A DNA stretch of 64,000 nucleotides, taken from an uncultured Enterobacteriaceae bacterium (GTDB lineage Bacteria; Pseudomonadota; Gammaproteobacteria; Eutrophobiales; Eutrophobiaceae). The DNA lies in NCBI GenBank assembly GCA_964523895.1, contig CAZGBJ010000002.1, positions 86,898 to 150,897 on the forward strand, written 5' to 3'. Both the position numbers and the translations under genes were made by a program. This document shows, in pieces, positions 43,814 to 57,307 of the stretch (position 1 is the stretch's first letter; every line of letters begins with the position of its first letter). The notes under the pieces are model-generated. The model did not search any database, was not told the origin of the DNA, and was given only the letters and a program-made list of their open reading frames with translations.

Positions 43814-44743
43814 TCAACAGGACAGTGGATTAGCAGAGTCAAGCATTTTGCATTCGATAGCAGCTGACTGCATTCTCATTATTCCCTGAGCGTTGAGAAC
43901 GACACTGTATCGTTGATCACCATTAGGCTCAATATAATTTATACAGGTAGCAGCAAAGGTCCCTGCGGTCGGTGTACCAAAGTACGCTGAATTATTTGTT
44001 GTGTTTCCACCGGTTCGTTTTGATTCAATGTCAGCGCCACCACTCAATGCATGTAATGACCATATAATCCTATCAGCAAAAGGAACAATTAATTCAAAAC
44101 AGTAACCAACATGAACTTTCAGCAGGTTGGCATCTTGAAGTGATTGTGATGAGACTCCACCACCAACTAATCTTGCGTCCCGATACATTAAATTGTCATT
44201 AGGAATGGCTGTTTCAGTTGAGCCATCGACATCGATATCAACGCCAAAATCTGTAAAAGAACTTACACTTGGGTTAACCACGGTAATATTGACTAAACCA
44301 TTACTAATTTCATCTTGCACTTTACGTCTGGCACATATCACACTGTCTGAGTTGAAATTACCAATATTGGCATTGCGAACGTTTTGGGTATTAATATCAA
44401 CTATTTGAGTTGTACCTACTCTAGCTTGTCTGCCGGCATCAGTATTTAAAAAAGTACTAGAGCAATCATTGCTTGTATCTATACTGTAATAGCTGGTGGT
44501 GTAGAGCGGCGCCATATTACTGGCAAAAGCCATTTCCATGTCATCAAGAGAGGCATTGTTTATGCTACCCGTTCTAGCAGTTTGAAAGGCCGCATAGTTG
44601 AGCGTGATTTTAGCTTGGTAGATGAAAGCAAATTGTAATAAGCCCATTATCAGAAGTAACATCACCGGCAAGATAATAAGAAATTCGACCATTGCCTGTG
44701 CGTTAGAAAATTTGTTTAGCTTTTTTAAATAGATTTTACGCAT
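43814..44743 (-). CDS. TadE/TadG-like pseudopilin (Flp-type prepilin-like N-terminus)
   Basis: N-terminus …AQAMVEFLIILPVMLLLIMGL… followed by the TadE-like motif. Confidence 0.65.
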   Translation of the reverse strand: MRKIYLKKLNKFSNAQAMVEFLIILPVMLLLIMGLLQFAFIYQAKITLNYAAFQTARTGSINNASLDDMEMAFASNMAPLYTTSYYSIDTSNDCSSTFLNTDAGRQARVGTTQIVDINTQNVRNANIGNFNSDSVICARRKVQDEISNGLVNITVVNPSVSSFTDFGVDIDVDGSTETAIPNDNLMYRDARLVGGGVSSQSLQDANLLKVHVGYCFELIVPFADRIIWSLHALSGGADIESKRTGGNTTNNSAYFGTPTAGTFAATCINYIEPNGDQRYSVVLNAQGIMRMQSAAIECKMLDSANPLSC

Positions 44744-44778
44744 ACTTATCTAGAGAATATTTTCTCGAATTTGTTTAT

Positions 44779-45237
44779 TCATTTCTGTTCAATAATAGTT
44801 TTAATCCCTTCCAGCAAATCTTTCGCTTTGTCATACAAAGGGTCATCTATATCAGCATACTGTATCATTTCATTTAGACTGTAAGCCGTCTGCTTCAATT
44901 GGACAATGCTTAAGTTATACCAGGCCTTGGTATATTTTGGGTTACGAATTACAGCTTCACGGTATAGAGTAATCGCCGCCGAAGGACGATTAGTACGAAC
45001 AAATATATTAGCCAGTCTGAACCAATTTTGCGCAATTGCAGGTTTTTCTTTAACCAGAATTTGGTAACCTTTTTCGCTCTCTACCAGATCATCATTTAGA
45101 TATGCCGTGTCAGCTTGTTTTTGAATTTCAAAATAGTCGATATTGGCGCTATTGCTAGTTTCTATATTTTCTTCTTTTATGCTTGACGTATTGCAGGCTG
45201 CAAGATTAAACATCAAGATTATTGTTAGTATTCTCAT
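44779..45237 (-). CDS. TPR-repeat lipoprotein (TadD-like)
   Basis: Lipobox LAAC plus TPR repeats. Located within the tad operon. Confidence 0.6.
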   Translation of the reverse strand: MRILTIILMFNLAACNTSSIKEENIETSNSANIDYFEIQKQADTAYLNDDLVESEKGYQILVKEKPAIAQNWFRLANIFVRTNRPSAAITLYREAVIRNPKYTKAWYNLSIVQLKQTAYSLNEMIQYADIDDPLYDKAKDLLEGIKTIIEQK

Positions 45238-45243
45238 ATTAAA

Positions 45244-45597
45244 CTAGGCATTTTCATGCCATTCCAGTTGTTGTCCATTAGTTAATTGTAATCGCTCGAG
45301 GCTATCCGTTGCCAATTCTAATACCATACTTGCGGCACTTGAAGCCGCCATACGCCAGGGCTTTAGTGCCTTAACAGTTTTTATGATAGTCAATTGTTTA
45401 TCGAGAAATACCAGGTCAATGGCATAAGTCATGCCAAAGGTATGTACTGAAGAACAGGGCACGATCAATAAACCTTCGTTTTGTTTAAGCGGGGCTGAGC
45501 CTAAAAGGCCGCGCATTCTGTCAATGAAATTAGTAGTTTTTGAAACGTTCTGTATTACTCGATCATCATTAGCTCTGGTCAAGCAGCCATGGATCAT
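45244..45597 (-). CDS. DUF192-domain protein
   Basis: …GLLGSAPLKQNEGLLIVPCSSVHTFGMTYAIDLVFLD… matches the DUF192 pattern. It overlaps tadC by 4 nt. Confidence 0.7.
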   Translation of the reverse strand: MIHGCLTRANDDRVIQNVSKTTNFIDRMRGLLGSAPLKQNEGLLIVPCSSVHTFGMTYAIDLVFLDKQLTIIKTVKALKPWRMAASSAASMVLELATDSLERLQLTNGQQLEWHENA

Positions 45598-46475
45598 AAC
45601 ATTCCTTCACCCATAAACTTCATGACGATAGGGAAACCAAGAACGATAAATGTAACCGGGAAGATAAACATGATTAATGGACCTACCAGTTTAATTGGTG
45701 CTTCCATTGCCAGCTTTTCTGCACGTTGGAAACGTTCATCGCGGCGTTGTTCGGATTGAACCCTTAAAACAGTTGCAAGCGAAGCCCCCATTTTTTCTGC
45801 CTGAATAATGGAGCTAACAAAGCTGGTGATTTCAGGGATATCAAGTCGTTCTGCCATACGTCTTAAAGCATCTGCACGTGACAGTCCTGAACGTAGATCG
45901 CGAAGTACAATTGCAAATTCATTACGCAATGGCCCAGGAGGTGCTTTTTCCATTGCTTGACCTAATGCACCTTGTAAGTTCAGGCCGCCTTCCACACACA
46001 TAGTAATAAAATCGAGATAGACTGGTAGGCTGCGAATGACAGCAGTATTGCGTTTCTTTCGGGTGTCAGATAACCATATCAACGGCAACATAAAACCAAC
46101 TATTGGCATAAAGATAAACCAGATAGGTTGAAAATTATTGAGGCAGATCATAATAAACAGTGCCATACCAGGTGCGATTATGGCTGAGATGATACGTAGG
46201 GCTATAAATTGTTCTGCATTGAGAAGATATCCTACACCAGAATTAGTAATTTTTGTTTCCGTGCTTTCAAGTATCTCGTAGGGTAAATAGACACAGAAAA
46301 AATTAGCGATGATTTGGATAAAGGGCCAGATTAATTTTAATTTCCAGGATAAAGGATCCATAAATGCCCTGTCATCCTGATTGACCATGGCATAGAGAGT
46401 GCCAATCAGTAATGTAAACAGAATAGTAGCAAGAGCATAAGAGATGATGCTACCTTGAAAATAAATGCTATCCAT
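45594..46475 (-). CDS. tadC: Tad pilus inner-membrane platform protein TadC (T2SS-F fold)
   Basis: T2SS-F domain. The start is set at the internal ATG at 46475 to avoid a 100-nt overlap with tadB. Confidence 0.8.
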   Translation of the reverse strand: MDSIYFQGSIISYALATILFTLLIGTLYAMVNQDDRAFMDPLSWKLKLIWPFIQIIANFFCVYLPYEILESTETKITNSGVGYLLNAEQFIALRIISAIIAPGMALFIMICLNNFQPIWFIFMPIVGFMLPLIWLSDTRKKRNTAVIRSLPVYLDFITMCVEGGLNLQGALGQAMEKAPPGPLRNEFAIVLRDLRSGLSRADALRRMAERLDIPEITSFVSSIIQAEKMGASLATVLRVQSEQRRDERFQRAEKLAMEAPIKLVGPLIMFIFPVTFIVLGFPIVMKFMGEGML

Positions 46476-46489
46476 TATTTCGTATCCTA

Positions 46490-47371
46490 TTAAACATCGA
46501 TACTTGTTATTTTGGTAATCATAAAATAGCCAAGTATCTCCATCATGATGATAATGGACAGAACGATATAACCGATGGTGGTTGTCCATAGCTTACTCAT
46601 GGCTTCTGGTTCCATGAAATTAAGTAATACGCCAAGCAAGACAGGTAGCCCAGTCATCACAATACCTTGAAGTTTACCTTGAGCAGTTAGACTCTGGATT
46701 TTACCTTCCATCATGCCTTTTCGACGTAGGGTTTCTCCCAGCGTTTCCATAGTTTCTGCAAGGTTGCCACCGACTTCACGGTTAATCAGAAGGGCAGTGA
46801 CGAGCATGCCAAAGTCCTGAATAGGAATGCGTTCTTCCATTTTTTTTAATGAATCTTCAAACTCTACCCCGAGCCGTTGTTCTTTGAGGAATAATTCAAA
46901 TTCTTGTGAAAGCGGCGCAGGTTGTTCTTTGACCAAACTTTCAAGAGCAATCGTCAGACTAGCACCGGCACGCATTGCACCAGAAATCATAACCAGGCCA
47001 TCCGGTAATTGCTGTTCAAAGCGTTTCAGGCGTTTATTGCGCATAGAACGATAAAAGAGAGAAGGTAACAAAATAATAACGACCAACATGCCTAAGGTTG
47101 CAGGTAGGTCTTCTGTTATAAACCAGGTCAGGATGGGCAAAACGATAATTGCAACAATATTGATCATAAACATCTGATTGGCATCAATAGATAAAAACAT
47201 ATCAGACATATTACTACTGGCCGTCTGAGTGAAATTCTCTTTGTAATTATCCATAAATGTTTGCGCTTTCCTTAAAAACGCAAACCACAGACAGGCCATC
47301 GTAATAAAAACGGCAGCCAGCGTTAGATAATAACTGGTACCGGCGGTGAAATTGATTATGGCATCAAACAT
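46490..47371 (-). CDS. tadB: Tad pilus inner-membrane platform protein TadB (T2SS-F fold)
   Basis: 293 aa with the T2SS-F domain and characteristic TM topology. Confidence 0.8.
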   Translation of the reverse strand: MFDAIINFTAGTSYYLTLAAVFITMACLWFAFLRKAQTFMDNYKENFTQTASSNMSDMFLSIDANQMFMINIVAIIVLPILTWFITEDLPATLGMLVVIILLPSLFYRSMRNKRLKRFEQQLPDGLVMISGAMRAGASLTIALESLVKEQPAPLSQEFELFLKEQRLGVEFEDSLKKMEERIPIQDFGMLVTALLINREVGGNLAETMETLGETLRRKGMMEGKIQSLTAQGKLQGIVMTGLPVLLGVLLNFMEPEAMSKLWTTTIGYIVLSIIIMMEILGYFMITKITSIDV

Positions 47372-47375
47372 TTTC

Positions 47376-49064
47376 TTAAGAAAATATTGACATATCTACG
47401 GGTAAACCACGTTGACGCATTTCTTCATAAAAGTGGGGTATTGCGCCTGTTGCTTCGAAATGCCCTTTTACTTTACCATTTTCATCAAATCCCTCTTGTT
47501 GATAACGAAAGATGTCTTGCATTGATACGATGCCAGATTCAACGCCTGTTATCTCAGTGATATTGGTAAGGCGACGACTACCGTCGGAGTAGCGAGATAT
47601 TTGAACGATCATGTGAATAGCAGAAGCGACCATTTCCCGAATAGCTGATACAGGTAAATCCAGGCCTGACATCATTACCATGACTTCTAAGCGGGCGATC
47701 ATATCCCGGGGTGTATTCGCATGAGCCGTTGTTAAGGAACCGTCATGGCCGGTATTCATAGCTTGTAACATATCCAGTGTTTCACCACCACGACACTCAC
47801 CAACAACGATTCTATCAGGTCGCATACGTAAACAGTTTTTCACCAAGTCACGAATAGGAATGGCGCCTTTGCCTTCCAGGTTTGCCGGCCGTGCTTCAAG
47901 GCTGACCAGGTGGGGTTGTGTTAATTTTAGTTCTGCAGCATCTTCGACGGTAATGATACGTTCGCCAGGGGGAATAAAATTAGACAAAACATTCAATAAG
48001 GTTGTTTTACCACTGCCAGTACCGCCAGAAATAAGAATGTTCATATGGTTATTAACAGCGGTTTCCAGAAACTGTACCATCCCGTCATTTAATGCGCCAA
48101 AGTTAACCAAATCGGAAGCCTGTAACTTTTGTTTGGCAAATTTTCGAATCGTCAGACAAGGGCCACGTAATGCCAGTGGGGGAATGATGGCGTTAACACG
48201 TGAGCCATCTTTTAATCGGGCATCAACCAGGGGTGAGCTTTCGTCGATGCGCCTTCCCAAAGGGGAAACGATACGCTCGATGGACGTCATGACAGCATCA
48301 TCACTTGAAAATGTGATATCAGATAAGGTGAGCTTGCCAGATTGCTCAATAAAAATTTCATCAAATTTATTGACCATGATTTCTGTGACAGTATCATCAG
48401 CAAGCAATTGTTCTAGCGGTCCTAATCCAACCGCCTCATTCAATACATCCTCTAAAAGTTTTTGCTTATCTACATCAGCGGGTAATTTGGAACCCATCTC
48501 ATCGATGATTTCTTTAACCATACCCTCTACGTGTTTACGTAAACCGTCCTCATCCATACTGCTGATATCAGTGCGACGTAAATCCATTGCCGCGAGTAAT
48601 TCTTCGTGTACTCGGTTACGCCATTTGAATTTTTCGTTGTGCTGCAGGTTGACTATTGTTTTACTGAGTTCTTCTGATTCATCCAGGACTTCATGTTGCT
48701 GAACACCGATGACGGTCTTCATGTCTTCAAAGGCATCGTCATCGTCATCATCGATTTCCTCTGCCGAATCAGCGCTGATACCCGCCTGTATATGGTAACC
48801 CGCAATAATGATTTTATCCGCGGAGCGGATTGGACCATGATGATCAACATCTTCATCATTAACTTCGATGCGACTTTGACCGGTTTTATCTTCTATAAAA
48901 AGGCCTTCAGATGTACGGCTGATGACAGCATGATAGGGAGCTACTTTCCAGCCACGTAATTGTATGAAGTTATCGCGTGCCTTGCCGATAGTGCATTCAG
49001 CAACCGGGCAACTAAAGTTCTTAATTCGTTCGCCTTTACTGTTATTAACTAAAACATCAAACAT
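47376..49064 (-). CDS. tadA: Tad/Flp pilus ATPase TadA/CpaF with N-terminal FHA domain
   Basis: N-terminal FHA (…CTIGKARDNFIQLRGWKVAPYHAVISR…SRIEVND…) and a C-terminal CpaF ATPase (ISGGTGSGKTTLLN; VGECRGGE; HDGSLTTAHAN). Confidence 0.85.
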   Translation of the reverse strand: MFDVLVNNSKGERIKNFSCPVAECTIGKARDNFIQLRGWKVAPYHAVISRTSEGLFIEDKTGQSRIEVNDEDVDHHGPIRSADKIIIAGYHIQAGISADSAEEIDDDDDDAFEDMKTVIGVQQHEVLDESEELSKTIVNLQHNEKFKWRNRVHEELLAAMDLRRTDISSMDEDGLRKHVEGMVKEIIDEMGSKLPADVDKQKLLEDVLNEAVGLGPLEQLLADDTVTEIMVNKFDEIFIEQSGKLTLSDITFSSDDAVMTSIERIVSPLGRRIDESSPLVDARLKDGSRVNAIIPPLALRGPCLTIRKFAKQKLQASDLVNFGALNDGMVQFLETAVNNHMNILISGGTGSGKTTLLNVLSNFIPPGERIITVEDAAELKLTQPHLVSLEARPANLEGKGAIPIRDLVKNCLRMRPDRIVVGECRGGETLDMLQAMNTGHDGSLTTAHANTPRDMIARLEVMVMMSGLDLPVSAIREMVASAIHMIVQISRYSDGSRRLTNITEITGVESGIVSMQDIFRYQQEGFDENGKVKGHFEATGAIPHFYEEMRQRGLPVDMSIFS

Positions 49065-49082
49065 AAGTGTTCCTTGGAAATT

Positions 49083-50567
49083 TTAATAAACGATATCAAG
49101 AGATTTTTCATCAATTACGTTGATGATTTTTTCAATATGATTATTGGTATTTTGAATGTCTCTCTGATTAAGTTCAGACTGTGCATCAAATACGGTAGGT
49201 GTAACAAATATAACCAATTCACTCTTTTTATCTCGGAAGCTTTTGGATTGAAATAGTTGTCCGAGTATGGGTATATCCATAAGGAATTTAAGTCCACTGA
49301 TATCTTTGGATGCCTCCTGATTGAGCAAACCTGACATGACTAACGTTTCACCTGATCTGAGAATAACATCAGCATCAGACGTTCTTGTAAGTAGCCCCGG
49401 AATACCATTAATAGCAACGGAATTATCAATTGAACTAAGTTCGGTCGAGACTTTTGCTCGAACATTGTTATTAATATCTACGACAGGTTGTACAGAAAGT
49501 TTTATACCAAACTGTTTAAACGTCACTGTCGTGCCATTGGTGTTCGATGTTTCTATAGGGAACTCACCACCCGCATGAAAGTTTGCTTCACCACCGCTAC
49601 GAGCTGACAAGCGAGGTTCAGCTAGAATCAATGCATTACCTGAACTAACTGCAAAGTTAATTCGAGATGTGATTTCCGAGACTATACCAAAGTATCCGAG
49701 TGCACTGCGTCCTATCTCAGGCGCCAAACCAGCAAAGGATGTATTTGGCAATTCTGAAGCTGCAAATGTTGCATTACTTACGGCGCTAGAAGCTACCGCA
49801 GCTGCAGGACCAGCAACAGATGAATCCCACTCAACACCCAAAGATTCAAGGTAGTTTTTATTAAAATCAGTGATCTTGGTTTGAACGATCACCATTTTAT
49901 TATCTGGACTTTCCATATTGATACTGTCACCGCTGCGAGTCAGATCCATGACTTCTGCAAATACGCTTTTCACGGTGTCAATTGAGTCTTTATATCCTTC
50001 ATCAATGTTTCCAGTCAGGACAATATGTTCACCGACCAAGCGTACATTTAATCCATCAACATCAGAAAGCATGTCTTCGATTTCCAGTTTCTTTCTGACT
50101 AGAGTATTTACGGCAAAATTGATATTAATGACGACTTCTTCATAGGTTTCTTTGATGCTGTTGATTGAATCTTCATGTCCAAAGGCAACCAGTCCTGACA
50201 GTACAATTCGATCACCAACAATATCTATTGCAAGTCCATCTATATCAGAGAAGATCCCTTCTAATTCAGCTTTTCTTTTAATGAGATTGCCAGATTGTTC
50301 AATGACATGAACGGTGTAATCATCTTCATTGCCGTTATTAAACCAGATATGTAAATTACTGGTGCCAGCGGACTCTGCGATAAGTAGTAATTGGCCATTA
50401 TTGAGCAATGAGTTACTGGCGACTTCAGGATCACCCATTGCGATACGTTCGATATCTCCGAGCCGGAGGATCTTTATCTCACCAACGTAAAGTTCTATTT
50501 GTTCTCCCGCTATACAAATACTTGTTGTAAATAGCAAAAGACTAGCCACGAATATATTTTTAATCAT
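49083..50567 (-). CDS. rcpA: Tad secretin RcpA/CpaC
   Basis: Signal peptide, two BON-like N-terminal repeats and a C-terminal secretin domain (…LVMSGLLNQEASKDISGLKFLMDIPILGQLF…VIFVTP). Confidence 0.85.
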   Translation of the reverse strand: MIKNIFVASLLLFTTSICIAGEQIELYVGEIKILRLGDIERIAMGDPEVASNSLLNNGQLLLIAESAGTSNLHIWFNNGNEDDYTVHVIEQSGNLIKRKAELEGIFSDIDGLAIDIVGDRIVLSGLVAFGHEDSINSIKETYEEVVININFAVNTLVRKKLEIEDMLSDVDGLNVRLVGEHIVLTGNIDEGYKDSIDTVKSVFAEVMDLTRSGDSINMESPDNKMVIVQTKITDFNKNYLESLGVEWDSSVAGPAAAVASSAVSNATFAASELPNTSFAGLAPEIGRSALGYFGIVSEITSRINFAVSSGNALILAEPRLSARSGGEANFHAGGEFPIETSNTNGTTVTFKQFGIKLSVQPVVDINNNVRAKVSTELSSIDNSVAINGIPGLLTRTSDADVILRSGETLVMSGLLNQEASKDISGLKFLMDIPILGQLFQSKSFRDKKSELVIFVTPTVFDAQSELNQRDIQNTNNHIEKIINVIDEKSLDIVY

Positions 50568-50710
50568 GATGTATATTTCCTGATTCCCTTAAACAATATA
50601 TTTTAATTTTTATAAACAGTCGTATTAACTATGACTGATATTTTTTCTAATTTTAGAAACTGATTTATGAGCTAAATACAGCTATGAGTTAGCTCTCTTT
50701 CTGTTTCAAA

Positions 50711-50992
50711 CTAATCCTCGACGGGTAAGTTGACTTGTTTCGCCAACCCATCCTCCGACTGTCCACCTACTATCATTTTTATAGAACGTCCTTTTTGTTT
50801 TTTTATAACCCTGGTACTGATAATTCCTTCAGGCAATTTTTTTGACATAGTGTCTGTATTAATTGTCTGTTTATCATCAGAGCTCATATCCTCCACTAAT
50901 GATTCTTTATAACTGTCTTCTTCTGCTGCAAGTGTAAGATAACTCCATCCCATCATAATAATGATGGGATAGAGCAATGGTCTAATGCGCAT
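50711..50992 (-). CDS. Small secreted protein sharing a C-terminal motif with the CpaB-like protein
   Basis: Signal peptide. Its C-terminus IVGGQSEDGLAKQVNLPVED parallels the CpaB-like C-terminus IIGGASEDGVAKSTTVSVP. Confidence 0.4.
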   Translation of the reverse strand: MRIRPLLYPIIIMMGWSYLTLAAEEDSYKESLVEDMSSDDKQTINTDTMSKKLPEGIISTRVIKKQKGRSIKMIVGGQSEDGLAKQVNLPVED

Positions 50993-51004
50993 AAGCCTTA
51001 ACAG

Positions 51005-53116
51005 TTATTTTTTCTCTCCACTTTCTTTATCTTTTGGTACAGATACGGTTGTTGATTTAGCAACGCCATCTTCACTCGCACCACCGATGATAAGGTCGTA
51101 GTTCTCAGGCGTTTTTAACTCACCTGTAATCGACTGATTTTCGGCAATCAATGCAATCTCATCTGAACTTAGAATCTTGCCATTAGCGCCAATCATGATA
51201 TTGCTTGGGTCGACAATATTGCCATCCTTATCAACAATATCTCCATTCTCATTAATGGTGTAACCAGCTGCTTCTAATTGTGCGCGACTGGCGAGTGTCT
51301 TACCGCTCGCGTCAACCAGGTTGCCATTTTCATCGACACCCGATGCGACCTTAATACCAGACGCTTCGAGTTGTTTCTTACTGAGAATCTCGCCGTTAGC
51401 AGAAGTGATCAAATCATCTTTATCAATGACATTGCCATTCGCATCAACAATCTCACCGTTCTCGTTAATGCTGAGACCGGCTGCTGCGAGTTGCTCTTTG
51501 GTCATGATGCTGCCGTCGGCTGCAACGACCAGGTTATTCGGATCAACGATGTTTCCATCCTTATCCACGATTTGTCCATGCTCATTGACCGTCAGTCCGG
51601 CTGCGGCTAATTGTTCTTTACTTAAGACAGAGCCATCAGCGGCGATATTTAGATCTTCAGGATTAATGACGTTGCCATCTTTATCAACAATCTCGCCATT
51701 CTCATTGACACTGTAGCCTGCGGCTGCCAATTGCTCCTTCGTTAATACGGTGCCATCTGCATTTACGATGATATCTTTGGTTGAAATAACCTTGCCATTG
51801 GCATCGACGATTTCACCATTTTCATTGACGCTGAGTCCGGCTGCTGCCAATTGCTCTTTGGTCATGACACTACCATCAGCGGCAATAACAACATCATTTG
51901 CATTAACGACATTACCGTCTTTATCAACCAGTTGTCCGTTTTCATTGACAGTGAGTCCGGCGGCGGCGAGTTGTTGTTTGTTCAACACAGTACCATCTGC
52001 GGAAACACAAAGGTCAGTTACATTAACGGCATTGCCATCTTTGTCTACGACTTGTTTATTGTCATTGATATTATAACCAGCAGCAGTCAGTTGCTTGCGA
52101 TTGATGAGTTTGTTTTTATCTGCATCGATTAGATTACCATTTATGTCGATGTCTACAGCACAAGCGGCGCGAGAAGCGCGATCTTTCTCTGCTGCAGCCA
52201 TACGCGAGGCATTGCCAAATAGATCAGTAGGGGCAACAGAAGTAAAAGAAGAAGCACTTTGATCATCCCGATTACGTAATAATGCCAACATGTCACCTTT
52301 GTCTTCAGCCAAGGTAATCAGAGCCGCCTGGTCTGGCGTTACTTCAATAGTGATATGAGAAAAATGGGTTTCAGTACGGCGTTGTGGTTGTCGTAATGCA
52401 TCCAGCGTTTCTTGGTAGGGGTCTCGACCGGTAGCTAATACAGTGATATTTTGCAGTACAGGTATAATAACGTCAGTAGGTGAAATACCGGCTAATAGTG
52501 CTTCAGGTTCTTCTAAGGTATCCGTAGCTGCCAAAAGTTCAGCCGGGATCATATCTTGCGCTTCTTGTGGTAGTAGTTCTAACAGACCGGCTTCTTTTGC
52601 AGCGATGATCATTGCGGGATTAATACCCGATGTTGCAAATGGAATATTGACAAAAACATCGATGCGATTACCCGGACGTAGAAAGCCGCCAATAGAGTTT
52701 ACATCATCAACAGTAATAGTAATGGCGCGTTTACCTGGAGGTATGATGTCAGAGAAGTCACGAGGAAAATCTTCATCCACAAAGCTTCTTAATAGGGGTT
52801 TCCCTCTACCTAGGTTGGTGGTCAGCGAGCGTCCCAAATAACGGTCAAATTCACTTGGGTAAATAGCATCTTCATGTACATAATTGGTAGGGACAGGACG
52901 CTGACTAAAAAGGTTTTGTGTTATCTCTTGTCCTTTGCGTAAATCGCCAGTTGCCACAACGACCATGATTTGCCTGGCCTTGTCTTGTTCGTATTTTGCT
53001 TTTAACTGCGCTTCACGTGTATTTAGATAAAACATTGCTAGCAAAGCGGCGATAATACCGAACCCGATTGCACCTGCCAGTAAAGGCATAGAATTTTTTT
53101 CTTGTTTTTTAGCCAT
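51005..53116 (-). CDS. cpaB: CpaB/RcpC-family Flp pilus assembly protein with a long C-terminal tandem-repeat extension
   Basis: N-terminal TM helix and SAF/CpaB domain (…QIMVVVATGDLRKGQEI…), followed by 8 tandem 40-aa repeats of KEQLAAAGLxVNENGxIVDKDGNVVxxxDLxIAADGSVxT. At 703 aa it is far longer than the usual 250-300 aa. Confidence 0.8.
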   Translation of the reverse strand: MAKKQEKNSMPLLAGAIGFGIIAALLAMFYLNTREAQLKAKYEQDKARQIMVVVATGDLRKGQEITQNLFSQRPVPTNYVHEDAIYPSEFDRYLGRSLTTNLGRGKPLLRSFVDEDFPRDFSDIIPPGKRAITITVDDVNSIGGFLRPGNRIDVFVNIPFATSGINPAMIIAAKEAGLLELLPQEAQDMIPAELLAATDTLEEPEALLAGISPTDVIIPVLQNITVLATGRDPYQETLDALRQPQRRTETHFSHITIEVTPDQAALITLAEDKGDMLALLRNRDDQSASSFTSVAPTDLFGNASRMAAAEKDRASRAACAVDIDINGNLIDADKNKLINRKQLTAAGYNINDNKQVVDKDGNAVNVTDLCVSADGTVLNKQQLAAAGLTVNENGQLVDKDGNVVNANDVVIAADGSVMTKEQLAAAGLSVNENGEIVDANGKVISTKDIIVNADGTVLTKEQLAAAGYSVNENGEIVDKDGNVINPEDLNIAADGSVLSKEQLAAAGLTVNEHGQIVDKDGNIVDPNNLVVAADGSIMTKEQLAAAGLSINENGEIVDANGNVIDKDDLITSANGEILSKKQLEASGIKVASGVDENGNLVDASGKTLASRAQLEAAGYTINENGDIVDKDGNIVDPSNIMIGANGKILSSDEIALIAENQSITGELKTPENYDLIIGGASEDGVAKSTTVSVPKDKESGEKK
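51190..52150. repeat. Tandem 120-nt coding repeats (about 8 copies) inside the cpaB-like gene
   Basis: Periodic DNA/protein repeat. It also generates spurious antisense ORFs (51278-52132 +). Confidence 0.75.
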
Positions 53117-53154
53117 AATCCGTTTTACTTTTTAAGTTGGTATTTGTTTGATGT

Positions 53155-53520
53155 TTAAAAAAAACTGGTTGCCTCTTCAGTTATCTGATCGACTAGATAA
53201 TCTTTGCCCATGTCTAAATCAGGTACTTCCAAGTCAGGAAAACTGGTGTATTCCTCTAATGCTGTAACTAGAGCTGACGGGTCAATTGGATTGATGACAT
53301 CTGCATCAATTAAGTAATCTGCCAGATTGTCATGATCGGGTAGGGTAGATAAGGAACTGGCGTACGAATAACCTTGATACTTATCATTCATGACCCCGAG
53401 TAGATCCAGTAATACATCTCCGCCAGGGCCGACAGTCATTACCATGACACCAAACACCAGAACGACAACATATTCGACCATACCCTGGCCTCGCTGCTTT
53501 ATGTGCTGTTTCGTTTTCAT
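53155..53520 (-). CDS. Flp-like prepilin/pseudopilin with an acidic C-terminal tail
   Basis: N-terminus …QRGQGMVEYVVVLVFGVMVM… carries the Flp-type G/xxxxEY prepilin motif and hydrophobic helix. Confidence 0.5.
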   Translation of the reverse strand: MKTKQHIKQRGQGMVEYVVVLVFGVMVMTVGPGGDVLLDLLGVMNDKYQGYSYASSLSTLPDHDNLADYLIDADVINPIDPSALVTALEEYTSFPDLEVPDLDMGKDYLVDQITEEATSFF

Positions 53521-53536
53521 GTCAATCCCAATTATC

Positions 53537-54292
53537 TTAAAAAATAGAGTTAGTTACAGAATTGATGACGATCCGAGTGTCATTATTATCTTTTATGAAT
53601 ATCATAGTAATTCTATTTCGTTTACTTTTAAAGACTAAACTGTGCATTTTGCCTACGCCGCCAAGATCCGTATCTGTTTCGTTAGTCCAGCCCAAGCCCT
53701 CATAGTGGCTGCGGTAGAAAGCAATATTATTTTCTATCGTATGGTTATTGGAAATAAGTAACGTTTTTGCCTTTTTCCCGGGATCTTTACTGGTTGATTC
53801 ATTGAGTACTTGGCTGTCCCTCATTTTGGGTATGCCTTTACCCCGTTCAAAATCAAAATCGTCCATATCGGGTAGACGACCCAGAGATAAATAGCCCCAG
53901 GATCCTTTACCAGTACGCTCATTGACTTGAACCTGCACCGTAAGCAGATAACCTTTTTCAGCGCGGCTGATAATATACCAGGGAGCCGCTGCAATATTTT
54001 CCAAATAGCCAGGCATATCTTTGCCAACCGGATTTCGCCATTCCTTACGATAAAATTCCACGACGTCTTCTATCGACTTATTACTATGAAATGCGCGTAC
54101 AGCTGATGGAATGCCATTAATTTCCATATTTTGTCCGACCCATTCGACGCTTGCTTGCGGCGGCGGTGGAAAATCAGGCGCGGCGCTGAGTATGGTTGGA
54201 TTCAAACATATAACGATCAGAGCAAACGTTAGCCATGGAGATTGGTTCATAAGTCTATATGTTCGATTAGTCAACATCATGGTGCCAAGCAC
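53537..54292 (-). CDS. Hypothetical secreted protein in the tad operon
   Basis: Signal peptide and no known domain. It overlaps the upstream gene by 16 nt. Confidence 0.45.
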   Translation of the reverse strand: MLGTMMLTNRTYRLMNQSPWLTFALIVICLNPTILSAAPDFPPPPQASVEWVGQNMEINGIPSAVRAFHSNKSIEDVVEFYRKEWRNPVGKDMPGYLENIAAAPWYIISRAEKGYLLTVQVQVNERTGKGSWGYLSLGRLPDMDDFDFERGKGIPKMRDSQVLNESTSKDPGKKAKTLLISNNHTIENNIAFYRSHYEGLGWTNETDTDLGGVGKMHSLVFKSKRNRITMIFIKDNNDTRIVINSVTNSIF

Positions 54293-55368
54293 TCTCGTTC
54301 AGCAAGTGTGCGAATCACATCAAAATCACACATACCGGCATCATTACATGAATGAGCGCCAATGGTGTCTCCTGTATTCGGGTCAATCAGTCGATCGGGG
54401 TGTGTGGCGTCAATATCAATATGTCCGAGCCACAAACTGCCTTTGTCATCTGCTGGATATATACCTCCTGGATTACACAGGCGTAGTTCAGGCGCAAAGA
54501 TGGTTACGGCATTCCAAATATCTGTCATGCCTGGAATTAGAGTAAACAAAGAAGCTAACATCGTGATCGGTGCCGTACCTCCCACTTGATTATAGGTATG
54601 AACTTTACCGCCTGCATTCCAGGCATTTGATAGCACTGCGGCGCTACTATTAAAATCCAGTGTGCCGCCAGTTAGTTCATTGGATGTACCGGCTACCCCA
54701 TTCATATTGTTGTAATTTGTCACGAAAGTGGGATTCACAGCCACCTGCATTGAGATGGTTGACTCAGCATAAGCATCATTATTGATTGCATCAAACCCGA
54801 CATTGGAGCCCACAAGCCCCATTAGATCACCGAAAATCTCGAAGATGAAACCAATACCATCACTGATGACTTGAACGATGTCGCCGAGTACGGGTACGGT
54901 CGGTGTGTCTTCTGAGCTTCGCAAACTCGCAGTTGCTCCATCAACACCGGAGTATAAAATATTGCCTGCATGATCGGTCCAGAGTGGGTTTCTACTTGCA
55001 GTGGTCCAGTCAGTGACTGAATCTGTACTGGTAATCGGCAAGGTCGTTGTTTCATTACCGGGATTGGTAAAAAAACGTTGCCGCGCCTCTTGTTGAGTCT
55101 CTACTGTAGACTTGAATGGTTGAGTAACAATAGCAGTACCACTGTCATCTTCGAAGCCCGACATGATTTCTGAATTACTGTCATACCAGACAGTGTACTC
55201 CCATGCTTGATAACGTGAGGCCTGAATAGCTGAATGTTTAATATCGATATATTTTGCCAATAGTGAGACACCAAGAAAGAGGGGTACAAGAGCGAATGAG
55301 GCACAAACCAAAAATTCAGTCATAGCTTGACCGCGTTCACTTTTGAATATTCTGTTAATCAGTATCAT
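54277..55368 (-). CDS. TadE-like pseudopilin
   Basis: N-terminus …ERGQAMTEFLVCASFALVPLFLG… shows the TadE-like motif. Confidence 0.7.
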   Translation of the reverse strand: MILINRIFKSERGQAMTEFLVCASFALVPLFLGVSLLAKYIDIKHSAIQASRYQAWEYTVWYDSNSEIMSGFEDDSGTAIVTQPFKSTVETQQEARQRFFTNPGNETTTLPITSTDSVTDWTTASRNPLWTDHAGNILYSGVDGATASLRSSEDTPTVPVLGDIVQVISDGIGFIFEIFGDLMGLVGSNVGFDAINNDAYAESTISMQVAVNPTFVTNYNNMNGVAGTSNELTGGTLDFNSSAAVLSNAWNAGGKVHTYNQVGGTAPITMLASLFTLIPGMTDIWNAVTIFAPELRLCNPGGIYPADDKGSLWLGHIDIDATHPDRLIDPNTGDTIGAHSCNDAGMCDFDVIRTLAERECLAP

Positions 55369-55369
55369 T

Positions 55370-57307
55370 TTAAAATGGTAAATAACTCAATAGATCGCCA
55401 AAAATAGTATTAAATGAGCCTGTGAGGTTGATAAAATTTTCTTTTTGTTGAATGAGTAAAGCAAGTATACGGTCAGCATAACTCGTCTCGATTAATCGCG
55501 CTTGCCAGTAGGGGTTGAAGGCATTTCCTGTCTCTGTATAACCATCCCCACGATGAAAATGGGAGGCCAGATTATCGGTAGGTCTGGCAAAGTAAAGTTC
55601 TGATTTTGATAAGACAGCCAACTCATCATCAGCGAGATCCTCGGTAAGGGAGAAGCGACCCGTGGGTTCGCTGTTAGCAGGAGTGGTGCTATCAAAATCG
55701 GGTTCGTCTTGCACCAATCCAATAATAACATTCGGCGCTCCGACTCCCATGAAGGACTCATGTCCCGAATTTGAATCAACATAATAGGGCAGGCCTTTAT
55801 AACTTTTGTTGACTCGGTTACCGACAGTTGTTTGCAGTGGTTCAAATGAAGATGGATGGATACCATAAGGCCCTGTTCCTGGTACCGTTACGTACCAGGC
55901 CGCCAGATTATTAGCGGCTTCTCCATATTGATCATTTTCGACAGGACCCGGGTTCGTCATATGCCCAGAATTCAAGTTATTGTCTGTTTTACCGACCTCT
56001 GCAAATCCGGCAGCAAAAGGGACACCGGTGGGGACTGGAATAGAGGGAATGATAGGTATATCAATGCCCCAAAAACTCACAGTCAGACTGAGCGAAGAAT
56101 CACCGAAGTCTAGTTCTCCACCTACGTCGAGTAGATCTTCACATGCTCCAAGTATGCAACCCTCAACCCAAAGTCGAAATCGCAAATAAATATCAAGAAA
56201 TAGACCGGTTGTATCGGCGGCGGACCAGTTAACGTTTCCGGCACTGACATTACCAGACGTGGGTAAGACAAAACGCATTTCAGTGCCACCTCTGCGTTCC
56301 AAAGATATATCAAGGTAAAACTCAAATTCAAAACCGGCCTCAATACAGCCGACGGCACAAGGACCGTAGGGGCCAAACGTTTCACTTTCATCGATATCTA
56401 TGGGAGGAAACGCTTTCAGTTCCCAACCTGGACGCCCATCTGCTAACTCTTGAGTAGTGCAGAACAAGCAGAAGGGATCCTGACCGCGGTACATACTGAA
56501 GGGATCACGGGAATCTCTAATCAGGGCTTGCAGGCGGGCATAACCATAGCCACCATCATAATCTCCATTTGCGTCTTCAGTGCTACCATAATCAGCGACG
56601 TCGACCGTTGTTGCGCCATAACCAGGGATGCCTCCAGCACTATATACCGTTGTAAATTGGTCGCCGGGTAGGCTGGGGTGTAGACCTAAAGTGGCAATAT
56701 GTGCAATAAGTGAAATAATACCGAAATCAGAGAGTTTGGCACCGGGCGGACCATTTTGTGTGATCGTGTCATCCAGTACACCAATAGAAGAAATAATACT
56801 GACGATATGCAATATGGTTGAGGCAAAACCGTAAATTTGATTAATGATGTGTAGTGCAGATGTGATCCCATTGGCTAGGGTCTTCATTGCCGTAATTGCT
56901 ACTCCCCCACCTGCTTTCCAGACGCTAGTAATTGCTGAAACGATGGGGGTTGAAGTCCCTAAAGTGATTGGTGAGAACAGTAGTTTGTCGTAAAGATCGA
57001 GATATTGGGCAAATGAATTGAAATGGTATGCCCAGGATGCCAAGCCAACGCTTTGGCCGATGGCGACTTCATTAGCGACGATGCCCCGATTGATATAAGC
57101 GGTGAAATTCATGTCTCGCGCTTCTACCGTAGACATACTATAGGCAGCGGCATCTGCAGCATTTTGCAACTGCATTTTGTTACTGGTGAGTTTCCCCATC
57201 TTGAACAGGGTGAGGGCGGAGACGACCAAGATTGCCATAAACAGCATCACCATCACCGCAGCCTGACCGCGTTGTGAAGAATGACTTATGGACTTATATC
57301 CTGACAA
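55370..57307 (-). CDS. TadG-like pilus assembly protein
   Basis: N-terminus …QRGQAAVMVMLFMAILVVSAL…NAADAAAY… matches the Tad-like PF13400-type N-terminus. 645 aa. Confidence 0.7.
   Translation of the reverse strand: MSGYKSISHSSQRGQAAVMVMLFMAILVVSALTLFKMGKLTSNKMQLQNAADAAAYSMSTVEARDMNFTAYINRGIVANEVAIGQSVGLASWAYHFNSFAQYLDLYDKLLFSPITLGTSTPIVSAITSVWKAGGGVAITAMKTLANGITSALHIINQIYGFASTILHIVSIISSIGVLDDTITQNGPPGAKLSDFGIISLIAHIATLGLHPSLPGDQFTTVYSAGGIPGYGATTVDVADYGSTEDANGDYDGGYGYARLQALIRDSRDPFSMYRGQDPFCLFCTTQELADGRPGWELKAFPPIDIDESETFGPYGPCAVGCIEAGFEFEFYLDISLERRGGTEMRFVLPTSGNVSAGNVNWSAADTTGLFLDIYLRFRLWVEGCILGACEDLLDVGGELDFGDSSLSLTVSFWGIDIPIIPSIPVPTGVPFAAGFAEVGKTDNNLNSGHMTNPGPVENDQYGEAANNLAAWYVTVPGTGPYGIHPSSFEPLQTTVGNRVNKSYKGLPYYVDSNSGHESFMGVGAPNVIIGLVQDEPDFDSTTPANSEPTGRFSLTEDLADDELAVLSKSELYFARPTDNLASHFHRGDGYTETGNAFNPYWQARLIETSYADRILALLIQQKENFINLTGSFNTIFGDLLSYLPF

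Follow-up and report, generated by a model that had tools for sequence, protein, structure and literature searches.

The 64,000-nt stretch of DNA analysed here (the window; positions 86,898 to 150,897 of contig CAZGBJ010000002.1, assembly GCA_964523895.1, from an uncultured Enterobacteriaceae bacterium, a marine gammaproteobacterium) carries on its reverse strand a Tad (Flp) pilus locus, in which a cpaB/rcpC-type open reading frame (ORF) encodes a protein of 703 amino acids (aa). Recent structures (2025-2026) have identified CpaB/RcpC as the Tad alignment complex, whose C-terminal hairpin links to the secretin directly in P. aeruginosa and via CpaI in Caulobacter. The P. aeruginosa RcpC consists, in order, of a transmembrane (TM) helix, the linker L1, the domain D1, L2, the domain D2, L3 and, at its C-terminus, a beta-hairpin (PMC12307814). 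The window protein is predicted to have the same order, with an array of hairpin repeats added in L3. Its features are as follows, in window positions:

51005..53116 (-): cpaB/rcpC-type ORF, 703 aa, 2112 nt
52979..53116 (-): aa 1-46, short basic cytoplasmic N-terminus and single TM helix (hydrophobic aa ~11-30), sequence MAKKQEKNSMPLLAGAIGFGIIAALLAMFYL
52772..52978 (-): D1 (SAF fold), aa 47-115; Pfam SAF match, Foldseek matches to type III antifreeze/SAF and FlgA structures
52262..52756 (-): D2 (RcpC domain), aa 121-285; Pfam RcpC match, Foldseek match to 9gzr_B, weak phmmer match of aa 122-158 to 9gzr RcpC
52480-52640 (-): helical low-confidence insertion in D2, aa ~160-212; Pfam RcpC match split in two
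52154..52261 (-): proximal L3 linker, aa 286-321, with a conserved helix predicted at aa 296-314; end of the TIGR03177 match at aa 322
51152..52153 (-): hairpin-repeat array, aa 322-655; seven units of 40 aa and one of 31 aa, with a half unit leading and another trailing
51998-52117 (-): R1, 40-aa unit
51878-51997 (-): R2, 40-aa unit
51758-51877 (-): R3, 40-aa unit
51638-51757 (-): R4, 40-aa unit
51518-51637 (-): R5, 40-aa unit
51398-51517 (-): R6, 40-aa unit
51305-51397 (-): R7, 31-aa unit, aa 574-604
51185-51304 (-): R8, 40-aa unit
51038..51106 (-): C-terminal beta-hairpin YDLIIGGASEDGVAKSTTVSV, aa 671-693, with strands predicted at 671-677 and 687-693; putative secretin-docking element
51005..51037 (-): charged C-terminal tail (PKDKESGEKK) and stop codon; low model confidence at aa 693-703 (predicted local distance difference test, pLDDT, <50)

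The 703-aa protein is indeed a CpaB/RcpC, as the original prediction had proposed. Proteins of this kind belong to the periplasmic alignment complex of Tad pilus machines, here a chromosomal one. The NCBIfam equivalog TIGR03177 (Flp pilus assembly protein CpaB) matches aa 12-322 with an E-value of 1.6e-40 and 139 bits, against a cut-off of 71, and the score becomes 144 bits when the array is removed in silico. In Pfam, the RcpC family (PF16976) is found in two stretches with E 4.9e-23 and SAF (PF08666) at aa 51-110 with E 3.6e-6. The top match in the PDB for the whole-protein AlphaFold2 (AF2) model is the P. aeruginosa RcpC (9gzr_B, Foldseek E 1.6e-11). At the N-terminal anchor, AF2 places a helix at aa 9-44, and the TIGR03177 match begins at aa 12.

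The P. aeruginosa RcpC (PDB 9GZR; Evans et al. 2025, PMC12307814) shares the TM helix, the SAF-like D1, the RcpC domain D2, L3 and, by prediction, the terminal hairpin with the window protein, and its gene likewise adjoins the secretin gene in the tad locus. The sequence identity between both proteins is only 18-19%, and they differ in two further respects. First, the D2 of the window CpaB holds a helical insertion (AF2 pLDDT 52-61 across four 10-residue blocks, aa 171-210), which appears to be extra to the canonical RcpC, judging from a Pfam match in two pieces and a 9gzr alignment that is only partial. Second, RcpC measures 303 aa with an L3 of ~35 residues, whereas the window CpaB has ~334 residues of folded repeats in L3. 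In the P. aeruginosa protein, L3 mediates oligomerization into a dodecameric ring (PMC12307814). Six residues of the proximal L3 (F291, L299, F300, A303, A307 and R316) are invariant among 38 homologues. Because the array comes after the end of the TIGR03177 match and the conserved helix and before the predicted terminal hairpin, as does L3 in RcpC, it is an expansion of the distal L3, between the ring domain D2 and the C-terminal hairpin. The earlier suggestion of a spacer is therefore plausible in outline, the array lying exactly between the inner-membrane ring and the putative docking hairpin, at the position of RcpC L3 (PMC12307814).

The array has a period of 40 aa (120 nt) and ~eight units, and its extent (51152..52153) is essentially the one first reported (51190-52150), between the CpaB domains and a conserved C-terminus. 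Eight QL[AT]A[AS]G anchors are found, at aa 342, 382, 422, 462, 502, 542, 582 and 613. The units are thus seven of 40 aa and one of 31 aa, with half a unit at each end. The periodicity is far beyond chance: Tandem Repeats Finder (TRF) gives a score of 282, a repeat search finds seven in-register copies, and 892 units were collected from 120 homologues. The units are nevertheless not the near-perfect copies that had been described. Between units, identity ranges over 33-78% (mean 54%) in protein and over 49-72% (mean 61%) in DNA; it is 41% at third codon positions, and the same codon is used at only 45% of the identical residues. TRF recovers no more than 2.1 copies at 75%, and no exact DNA repeat is longer than 17 nt. 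With its highest unit identity at 78%, the window array holds no recent duplicate. The composition (N 12%, A 12%, D 10.5%, V 10%, G 10%; net charge ~ -30) bears out the description of a Gly/Asp/Asn-rich repeat. The array contains no Trp or Phe, and Tyr amounts to 0.9%. Four plus-strand ORFs of 93-131 aa (51278-52132) lie antisense to the array; they are by-products of its periodic codon structure and not genes.

The divergence of the units bears directly on whether the array could be a contingency repeat, variable in phase or length, or an assembly artefact. The idea draws on the presence of a tandem repeat in a surface-machine gene and on a copy number that differs between related genomes. 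It is scarcely credible here: phase variation and mis-assembly are very unlikely because the units have diverged, their longest exact repeat is 17 nt, and an identical 2112-nt gene, with zero differences, is present on another contig under a separate ENA record. The unit length is moreover divisible by 3, which means that slippage would leave the reading frame unchanged, and the units are orthologous by position across species. Nineteen homologues fall in the 700-709 aa length class, which also argues against the mis-assembly that the original prediction had named as its own refutation.

A structured unit is predicted by AF2. The array reaches a pLDDT of ~80-90 in the full-length model; modelled alone, it has a pLDDT of 84.6 and a predicted template modelling score (pTM) of 0.66. 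In the model, each unit comprises short strands around three tight turns (ADG, NENG and DKDG) and a six-residue helix (KEQLAA). Conservation points in the same direction. In orthologues that belong to the same length class, the array has an identity of 0.54-0.90 to that of the window protein, versus 0.55-0.87 for D1/D2. Unit i best matches unit i across species, with a diagonal identity of 0.68-0.77 versus 0.42-0.48 off the diagonal, a pattern in which concerted evolution among the units is not seen. Across the 892 units of the 120 listed homologues, conservation is at least 99% at the unit residues D1, G14, G28 and A40 and 98% at L10, G21 and D25. This combination of model confidence, array conservation, positional orthology and near-invariant unit residues is the signature of a structured, selected module and not of a low-complexity tether.

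A flexible tether without defined structure or length would nonetheless have a function, as it would allow twelve CpaB hairpins to extend to a 13- or 14-fold secretin in spite of the symmetry mismatch. For RcpC and RcpA, a mismatch of 12:13 has been documented, and the cryo-EM map shows L3 with poor order (PMC12307814). The variable copy number, together with a secretin length that does not co-vary with CpaB length, would also suit such a role. The high AF2 confidence (pTM 0.66) is hard to reconcile with it, as are an array conservation that equals or exceeds that of the globular domains, units that are positionally orthologous, a regular hydrophobic pattern and invariant turn glycines. We therefore give the tether only a small chance of being correct.

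The homologues show how the array varies. A protein search returned 332 clusters, and all 120 listed homologues carry both PF12396 (DUF3659, see below) and PF16976 in their precomputed annotation. Their lengths form classes near 577, 617, 657, 703, 750 and 795 aa, and a hidden Markov model (HMM) counts 4-12 units per protein, with a mode of 7. In a scan of species-representative genomes, 121 relatives were found, of which 80 loci were kept; their CpaBs are mostly 510-840 aa long and have up to 13 units. All 80 loci stem from uncultured organisms, nearly all labelled as Gammaproteobacteria or lineages within. CpaB length follows unit number, and copy number varies between lineages, as the original prediction had anticipated, over an overall range of 4-13 units among relatives.

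The array grows by duplication of a two-unit block, consisting of the 31-aa unit and the following Tyr-type unit. The duplicated units are 85%, 92% and 100% identical in the homologues P0003, P0006 and P0010, respectively. The pair of 40-aa units with 100% protein identity in P0010 (747 aa; locus L015) is the product of a very recent block duplication. More distant CpaBs have other hairpin repeats at the L3 position, of visibly different lengths and without the QLAAAG helix. Examples come from metagenome-assembled genomes (MAGs) of Oceanospirillales and Nitrincola (L079/L081), in a Chromatiales MAG (L080) and in the loci L052 and L068. This indicates that the expansion of L3 by hairpin repeats is recurrent and independent. 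As the repeats differ from case to case, the role of the array is suggested to be geometric rather than sequence-specific, with a hairpin-repeat rod as the property under selection.

The range of unit numbers also bears on the possibility of a closed, eight-bladed domain of the beta-propeller kind inserted in L3, with the eight 40-aa units as its blades. The 40-aa period resembles that of WD40 repeats, phmmer gives an E-value of 9e-4 to the designed 8-blade Tako8, and Foldseek one of 2.5e-4 to the 7-blade virginiamycin B lyase. The Tako8 alignment, however, consists of scattered identities over the common 40-aa period only, and the structural superpositions are poor (template modelling (TM) score 0.10-0.14, root-mean-square deviation 16-19 A). 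Further, the unit number varies over 4-13, with single steps among close relatives, one unit has 31 aa, every unit contains a helix, and there is no WD40 match in Pfam. A closed toroid with a fixed number of 4-stranded blades is not what is found (TM-score at most 0.14; 4-13 units), and the propeller, which we consider highly improbable, was rejected.

Contrary to the original prediction, the repeat is not beyond recognition. At the whole-protein level it passes the Pfam family DUF3659 (PF12396) with 85.7 bits versus a gathering threshold (GA) of 24.8 (E 2e-24), in six partial stretches, although the match covers only a hairpin sub-motif. The best stretch spans profile positions 5-54 of 61, short of the full 61 residues, while bona fide fungal members of the family score 315-726 bits with full 1-61 matches. 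DUF3659 is mainly fungal, an example being LdrD of Aspergillus oryzae (bioRxiv 10.1101/2022.11.24.517872). It has in common with the CpaB unit a double hairpin of ~20 residues, G-x-V-[ND]-x-x-G-x-[IV]-V-D-x-x-G-x-V, but its unit measures 61 aa versus the CpaB period of 40 aa. When a profile of the 40-aa unit was searched against 1.84 billion representative proteins (E <= 1e-3), only 138 matches were obtained. Whole-unit matches are either proteins with a CpaB N-terminus (~40 clusters) or short fragments ending in an IIGG..DG hairpin. The other matches are limited to positions 13-35, the double hairpin, and include bona fide fungal DUF3659 proteins; the QLAAAG helix of the CpaB unit lies outside these positions. 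Because whole-unit matches are essentially confined to CpaB and fragments and all others to positions 13-35, the 40-aa unit is a generic hairpin motif in a form elaborated specifically in CpaB. Membership of DUF3659 explains nothing of the function of the array. In the searchable literature, one fungal paper was found for DUF3659 and nothing relevant on tandem repeats in CpaB. Database annotation already shows RcpC and DUF3659 together, a combination that is undescribed in that literature.

One protein matched by the unit profile (P0143, 520 aa) carries a signal peptide and unites hairpin repeats with a pil_N domain of the secretin type (PF13629, E 3.6e-16) and with a hairpin at the C-terminus (FIPGGTSKDGLLPILKV). 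The presence of a receiver domain, repeats and a docking hairpin in one chain suggests a possible CpaI-like bridging protein.

In structural space, Foldseek searches of the array model against the PDB and BFVD gave no global analogue (TM-score at most 0.14). The local matches are hairpin-repeat proteins, namely glucan- and choline-binding repeats and adenovirus fibre shafts. The repeats of LytA, Pce and dextransucrase and the fibre shaft, which is trimeric, have a local hairpin geometry in common with the array (E 6.6e-5 to 1e-2 in the PDB, 5.7e-7 in BFVD). They differ from it globally, and the array has neither aromatic ligand residues nor a sequence-family match.

These local matches bring forward a ligand-binding module that would project from the CpaB ring instead of spanning to the secretin. 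It would anchor or position the machine in the cell wall by binding peptidoglycan or another envelope glycan, or bind Ca2+ for rigidity. The top local Foldseek matches are indeed hairpin-repeat ligand binders, namely dextransucrase 5ngy with its glucan-binding repeats (E 6.6e-5) and Pce 2bib and LytA 1hcx with their choline-binding domains, and the array is acidic, rich in Asp, Asn and Gly, and has invariant Asp and Asn residues. In addition, no peptidoglycan-handling partner of Tad machines is known, RcpC has been suggested as its likely recruiter (PMC12307814), and the Caulobacter CpaI contacts peptidoglycan (PMC13170226). Against this stand the TM-scores of at most 0.14 and Foldseek probabilities of 0.1-0.3 to the binders in question. 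Choline- and glucan-binding repeats use aromatic residues for their ligand, whereas the array is devoid of Trp and Phe and has <1% Tyr. It has no Pfam match to CW_binding, LysM, SPOR, OmpA or similar families, and its richness in Asp, Asn and Gly is sufficiently explained by the three tight turns per unit (DG, NG, DG). Ligand binding thus seems unlikely, though less so than the tether. Two narrower candidates were also dropped. A repeat of the CW_binding_1 type would consist of ~20-aa hairpins with conserved aromatics, while the array has no such Pfam match, no Trp or Phe, 0.9% Tyr and only local 3Di similarity; an EF-hand (DxDxDG) reading of DKDGN fails as the Gly is at position 4 and not 6.

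For the C-terminal hairpin, a function is suggested by the known systems. In the model of the P. aeruginosa complex, the RcpC hairpin completes the beta-sheet in the N-domain of the secretin RcpA, and Tad function depends on this hairpin (PMC12307814). For Caulobacter, the prediction is that the hairpin of CpaB packs against CpaI, and CpaI forms the bridge to the secretin (PMC13170226). By analogy with both, the terminal hairpin of the window CpaB would dock as well. Its two strands (YDLIIGG...KSTTVSV; AF2, 671-677 and 687-693) are predicted with a pLDDT of only ~55. Among 38 homologues G678, G679 and G684 are invariant, and the hairpin motif is conserved in 108 of the 120 listed homologues. 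Its presumed partner is the N-terminal pil_N domain of the secretin. The two genes that follow cpaB are:

50711..50992 (-): secreted protein of 93 aa, encoded between cpaB and the secretin gene; its signal peptide looks cleavable; C-terminus SIKMIVGGQSEDGLAKQVNLPVED
49083..50567 (-): Tad secretin (RcpA/CpaC type), 494 aa; Pfam Secretin E 4.3e-38, T2SS-T3SS_pil_N E 1.1e-13 at aa 22-88

The hairpin motif of CpaB is duplicated at the C-terminus of the 93-aa protein (SIKMIVGGQSEDGLAKQVNLPVED; motif MIVGGQSEDGLAKQVNLPVED). An equivalent ORF of 83-145 aa is located right after the long cpaB in ~45 related loci, and an HMM of the CpaB C-terminus matches such small ORFs at their extreme C-termini, down to E 1.7e-10 (37 loci <1e-3). 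The protein itself has no match in Pfam or NCBIfam and 21 homologues, all unnamed. It may bind the same site as the CpaB hairpin, as a competitor or co-ligand for the secretin N-domain.

With moderate confidence, the array is read as a folded arm of fixed length that would bridge the inner-membrane alignment ring to the secretin. The L3 linker of CpaB has been expanded into ~eight folded 40-residue modules, each predicted to have three hairpin turns and a short helix (KEQLAAAG), which separate the inner-membrane-anchored ring domains D1/D2 from the putative docking hairpin at the C-terminus. Each protomer of the CpaB ring, which is dodecameric by homology, would then bear a folded acidic arm of fixed length and present its docking hairpin to the outer-membrane secretin complex. 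The arm would do in cis the job of the direct D2-secretin contact in P. aeruginosa or of CpaI in Caulobacter. Module number would set the reach; it differs between lineages (4-13) through duplication of two-unit blocks and is taken to be stable within a lineage. What the data show is the identity of the protein, the place of the array, the confidence of its predicted fold, its conservation and the way in which copy number changes, whereas the docking of the hairpin to the secretin in this organism, an elongated array of set length and the bridge itself are inferred. It also counts for the arm that Tad systems vary in the connection between inner and outer membrane, many of them being without CpaI (PMC13170226).

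The comparison with Caulobacter crescentus CpaB and CpaI (PMC13170226) illustrates the proposal. There, a CpaB ring is found near the inner membrane and its C-terminal hairpin reaches the outer-membrane complex via an extra element spanning the peptidoglycan region. In Caulobacter this element, CpaI, is a protein of its own and takes up the hairpin; in the window system, the bridge is proposed to lie inside CpaB itself, and the small 93-aa protein bears a hairpin instead of receiving one. No CpaI homologue was identified in the window's system, for which a rigorous search for CpaI was not made.

GspC of the type II secretion system (T2SS) and PilP, PilN and PilO of the type IVa pilus (T4aP) are likewise anchored in the inner membrane and cross the periplasm to the secretin N-terminal domains, with unrelated folds. 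They form a cage that contacts these domains. A tandem hairpin-repeat rod is not known from GspC or from PilP/PilN/PilO. The secretin-linking proteins of the type IV filament machines are compared in PMC12307814 and PMC13170226.

Several points weigh against the bridging arm. The size of the array is bounded only by our own rough estimate of 1-2.4 nm per unit, or ~8-19 nm in total. The modelled RcpA:RcpC complex of P. aeruginosa is 21 nm tall in a periplasm of ~24 nm (PMC12307814), and a rod of 8-19 nm would misfit an architecture of this kind unless ring and secretin were further apart or the arms tilted or splayed. The equivalence of the terminal hairpin to that of RcpC is suggested by position and predicted structure only; the sequence profiles stop short of it, and a construct with the array deleted gave no alignment there with either the PDB or TIGR03177. 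The confident AF2 prediction of the array was obtained from shallow alignments of 11 and 38 sequences. Finally, CpaB and secretin lengths show no sign of compensatory tuning, with a Spearman coefficient of -0.02 over 68 loci; the Pearson coefficient of 0.33 over the same loci is probably driven by truncated outliers, e.g. L063 and L070.

A more far-reaching version of the bridging arm can be put forward tentatively, as a possibility with the odds against it. The long-CpaB Tad machines would represent a third, undescribed way of joining the two membrane halves, in which twelve hairpin-repeat arms form a length-adjustable periplasmic cage or conduit and the small hairpin protein occupies or regulates the same secretin sites. 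The small protein could, for example, fill the sites left by the 12:13 symmetry mismatch, or hold sites until CpaB engages.

The family inserts a conserved folded rod of 4-13 modules at the hairpin-secretin junction, where species are already known to differ. This natural length series offers a test of how distance and linkage between the membrane sub-complexes are set, and the hairpin-bearing small protein provides a second handle on the docking site. A practical limit is that the members found all come from uncultured Gammaproteobacteria, nearly all of them labelled as MAGs, so that heterologous reconstruction would be required.

The surrounding tad locus is complete, chromosomal and on the same strand (43814-57307, -), with mutS and htpG at its flanks. 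Its gene order begins with a TadG-like gene, after which come two unknown genes, a Flp-like pilin, cpaB, the 93-aa ORF and the secretin; there follow an FHA-domain CpaF ATPase, TadB and TadC, a DUF192 gene, a tetratricopeptide repeat (TPR) TadD-like gene and a TadE-like gene. Genes for TadZ/CpaE and for a prepilin peptidase were not identified among the tad locus genes scanned. The ATPase gene is:

47376-49064 (-): CpaF/TadA ATPase, with an N-terminal FHA domain (E 2.4e-6)

Upstream of cpaB, a 121-aa ORF (53155-53520, -) carries a class III signal motif of the Flp/TadE type (RG|QGMVEYVVVL). It is unusually long for a Flp pilin, the C-terminal half is acidic, and no match was found in Pfam or NCBIfam. 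The DUF192 (COG1430) gene (45244-45597, -) has tadC on one side and the TPR TadD-like gene on the other, and so lies inside the tad operon. Lastly, two genes of 251 and 363 aa (53537-55368, -), without a Pfam match, lie between the TadG-like gene and the pilin; in the related locus L001, genes of similar length (245 and 363 aa) take the positions of this pair.

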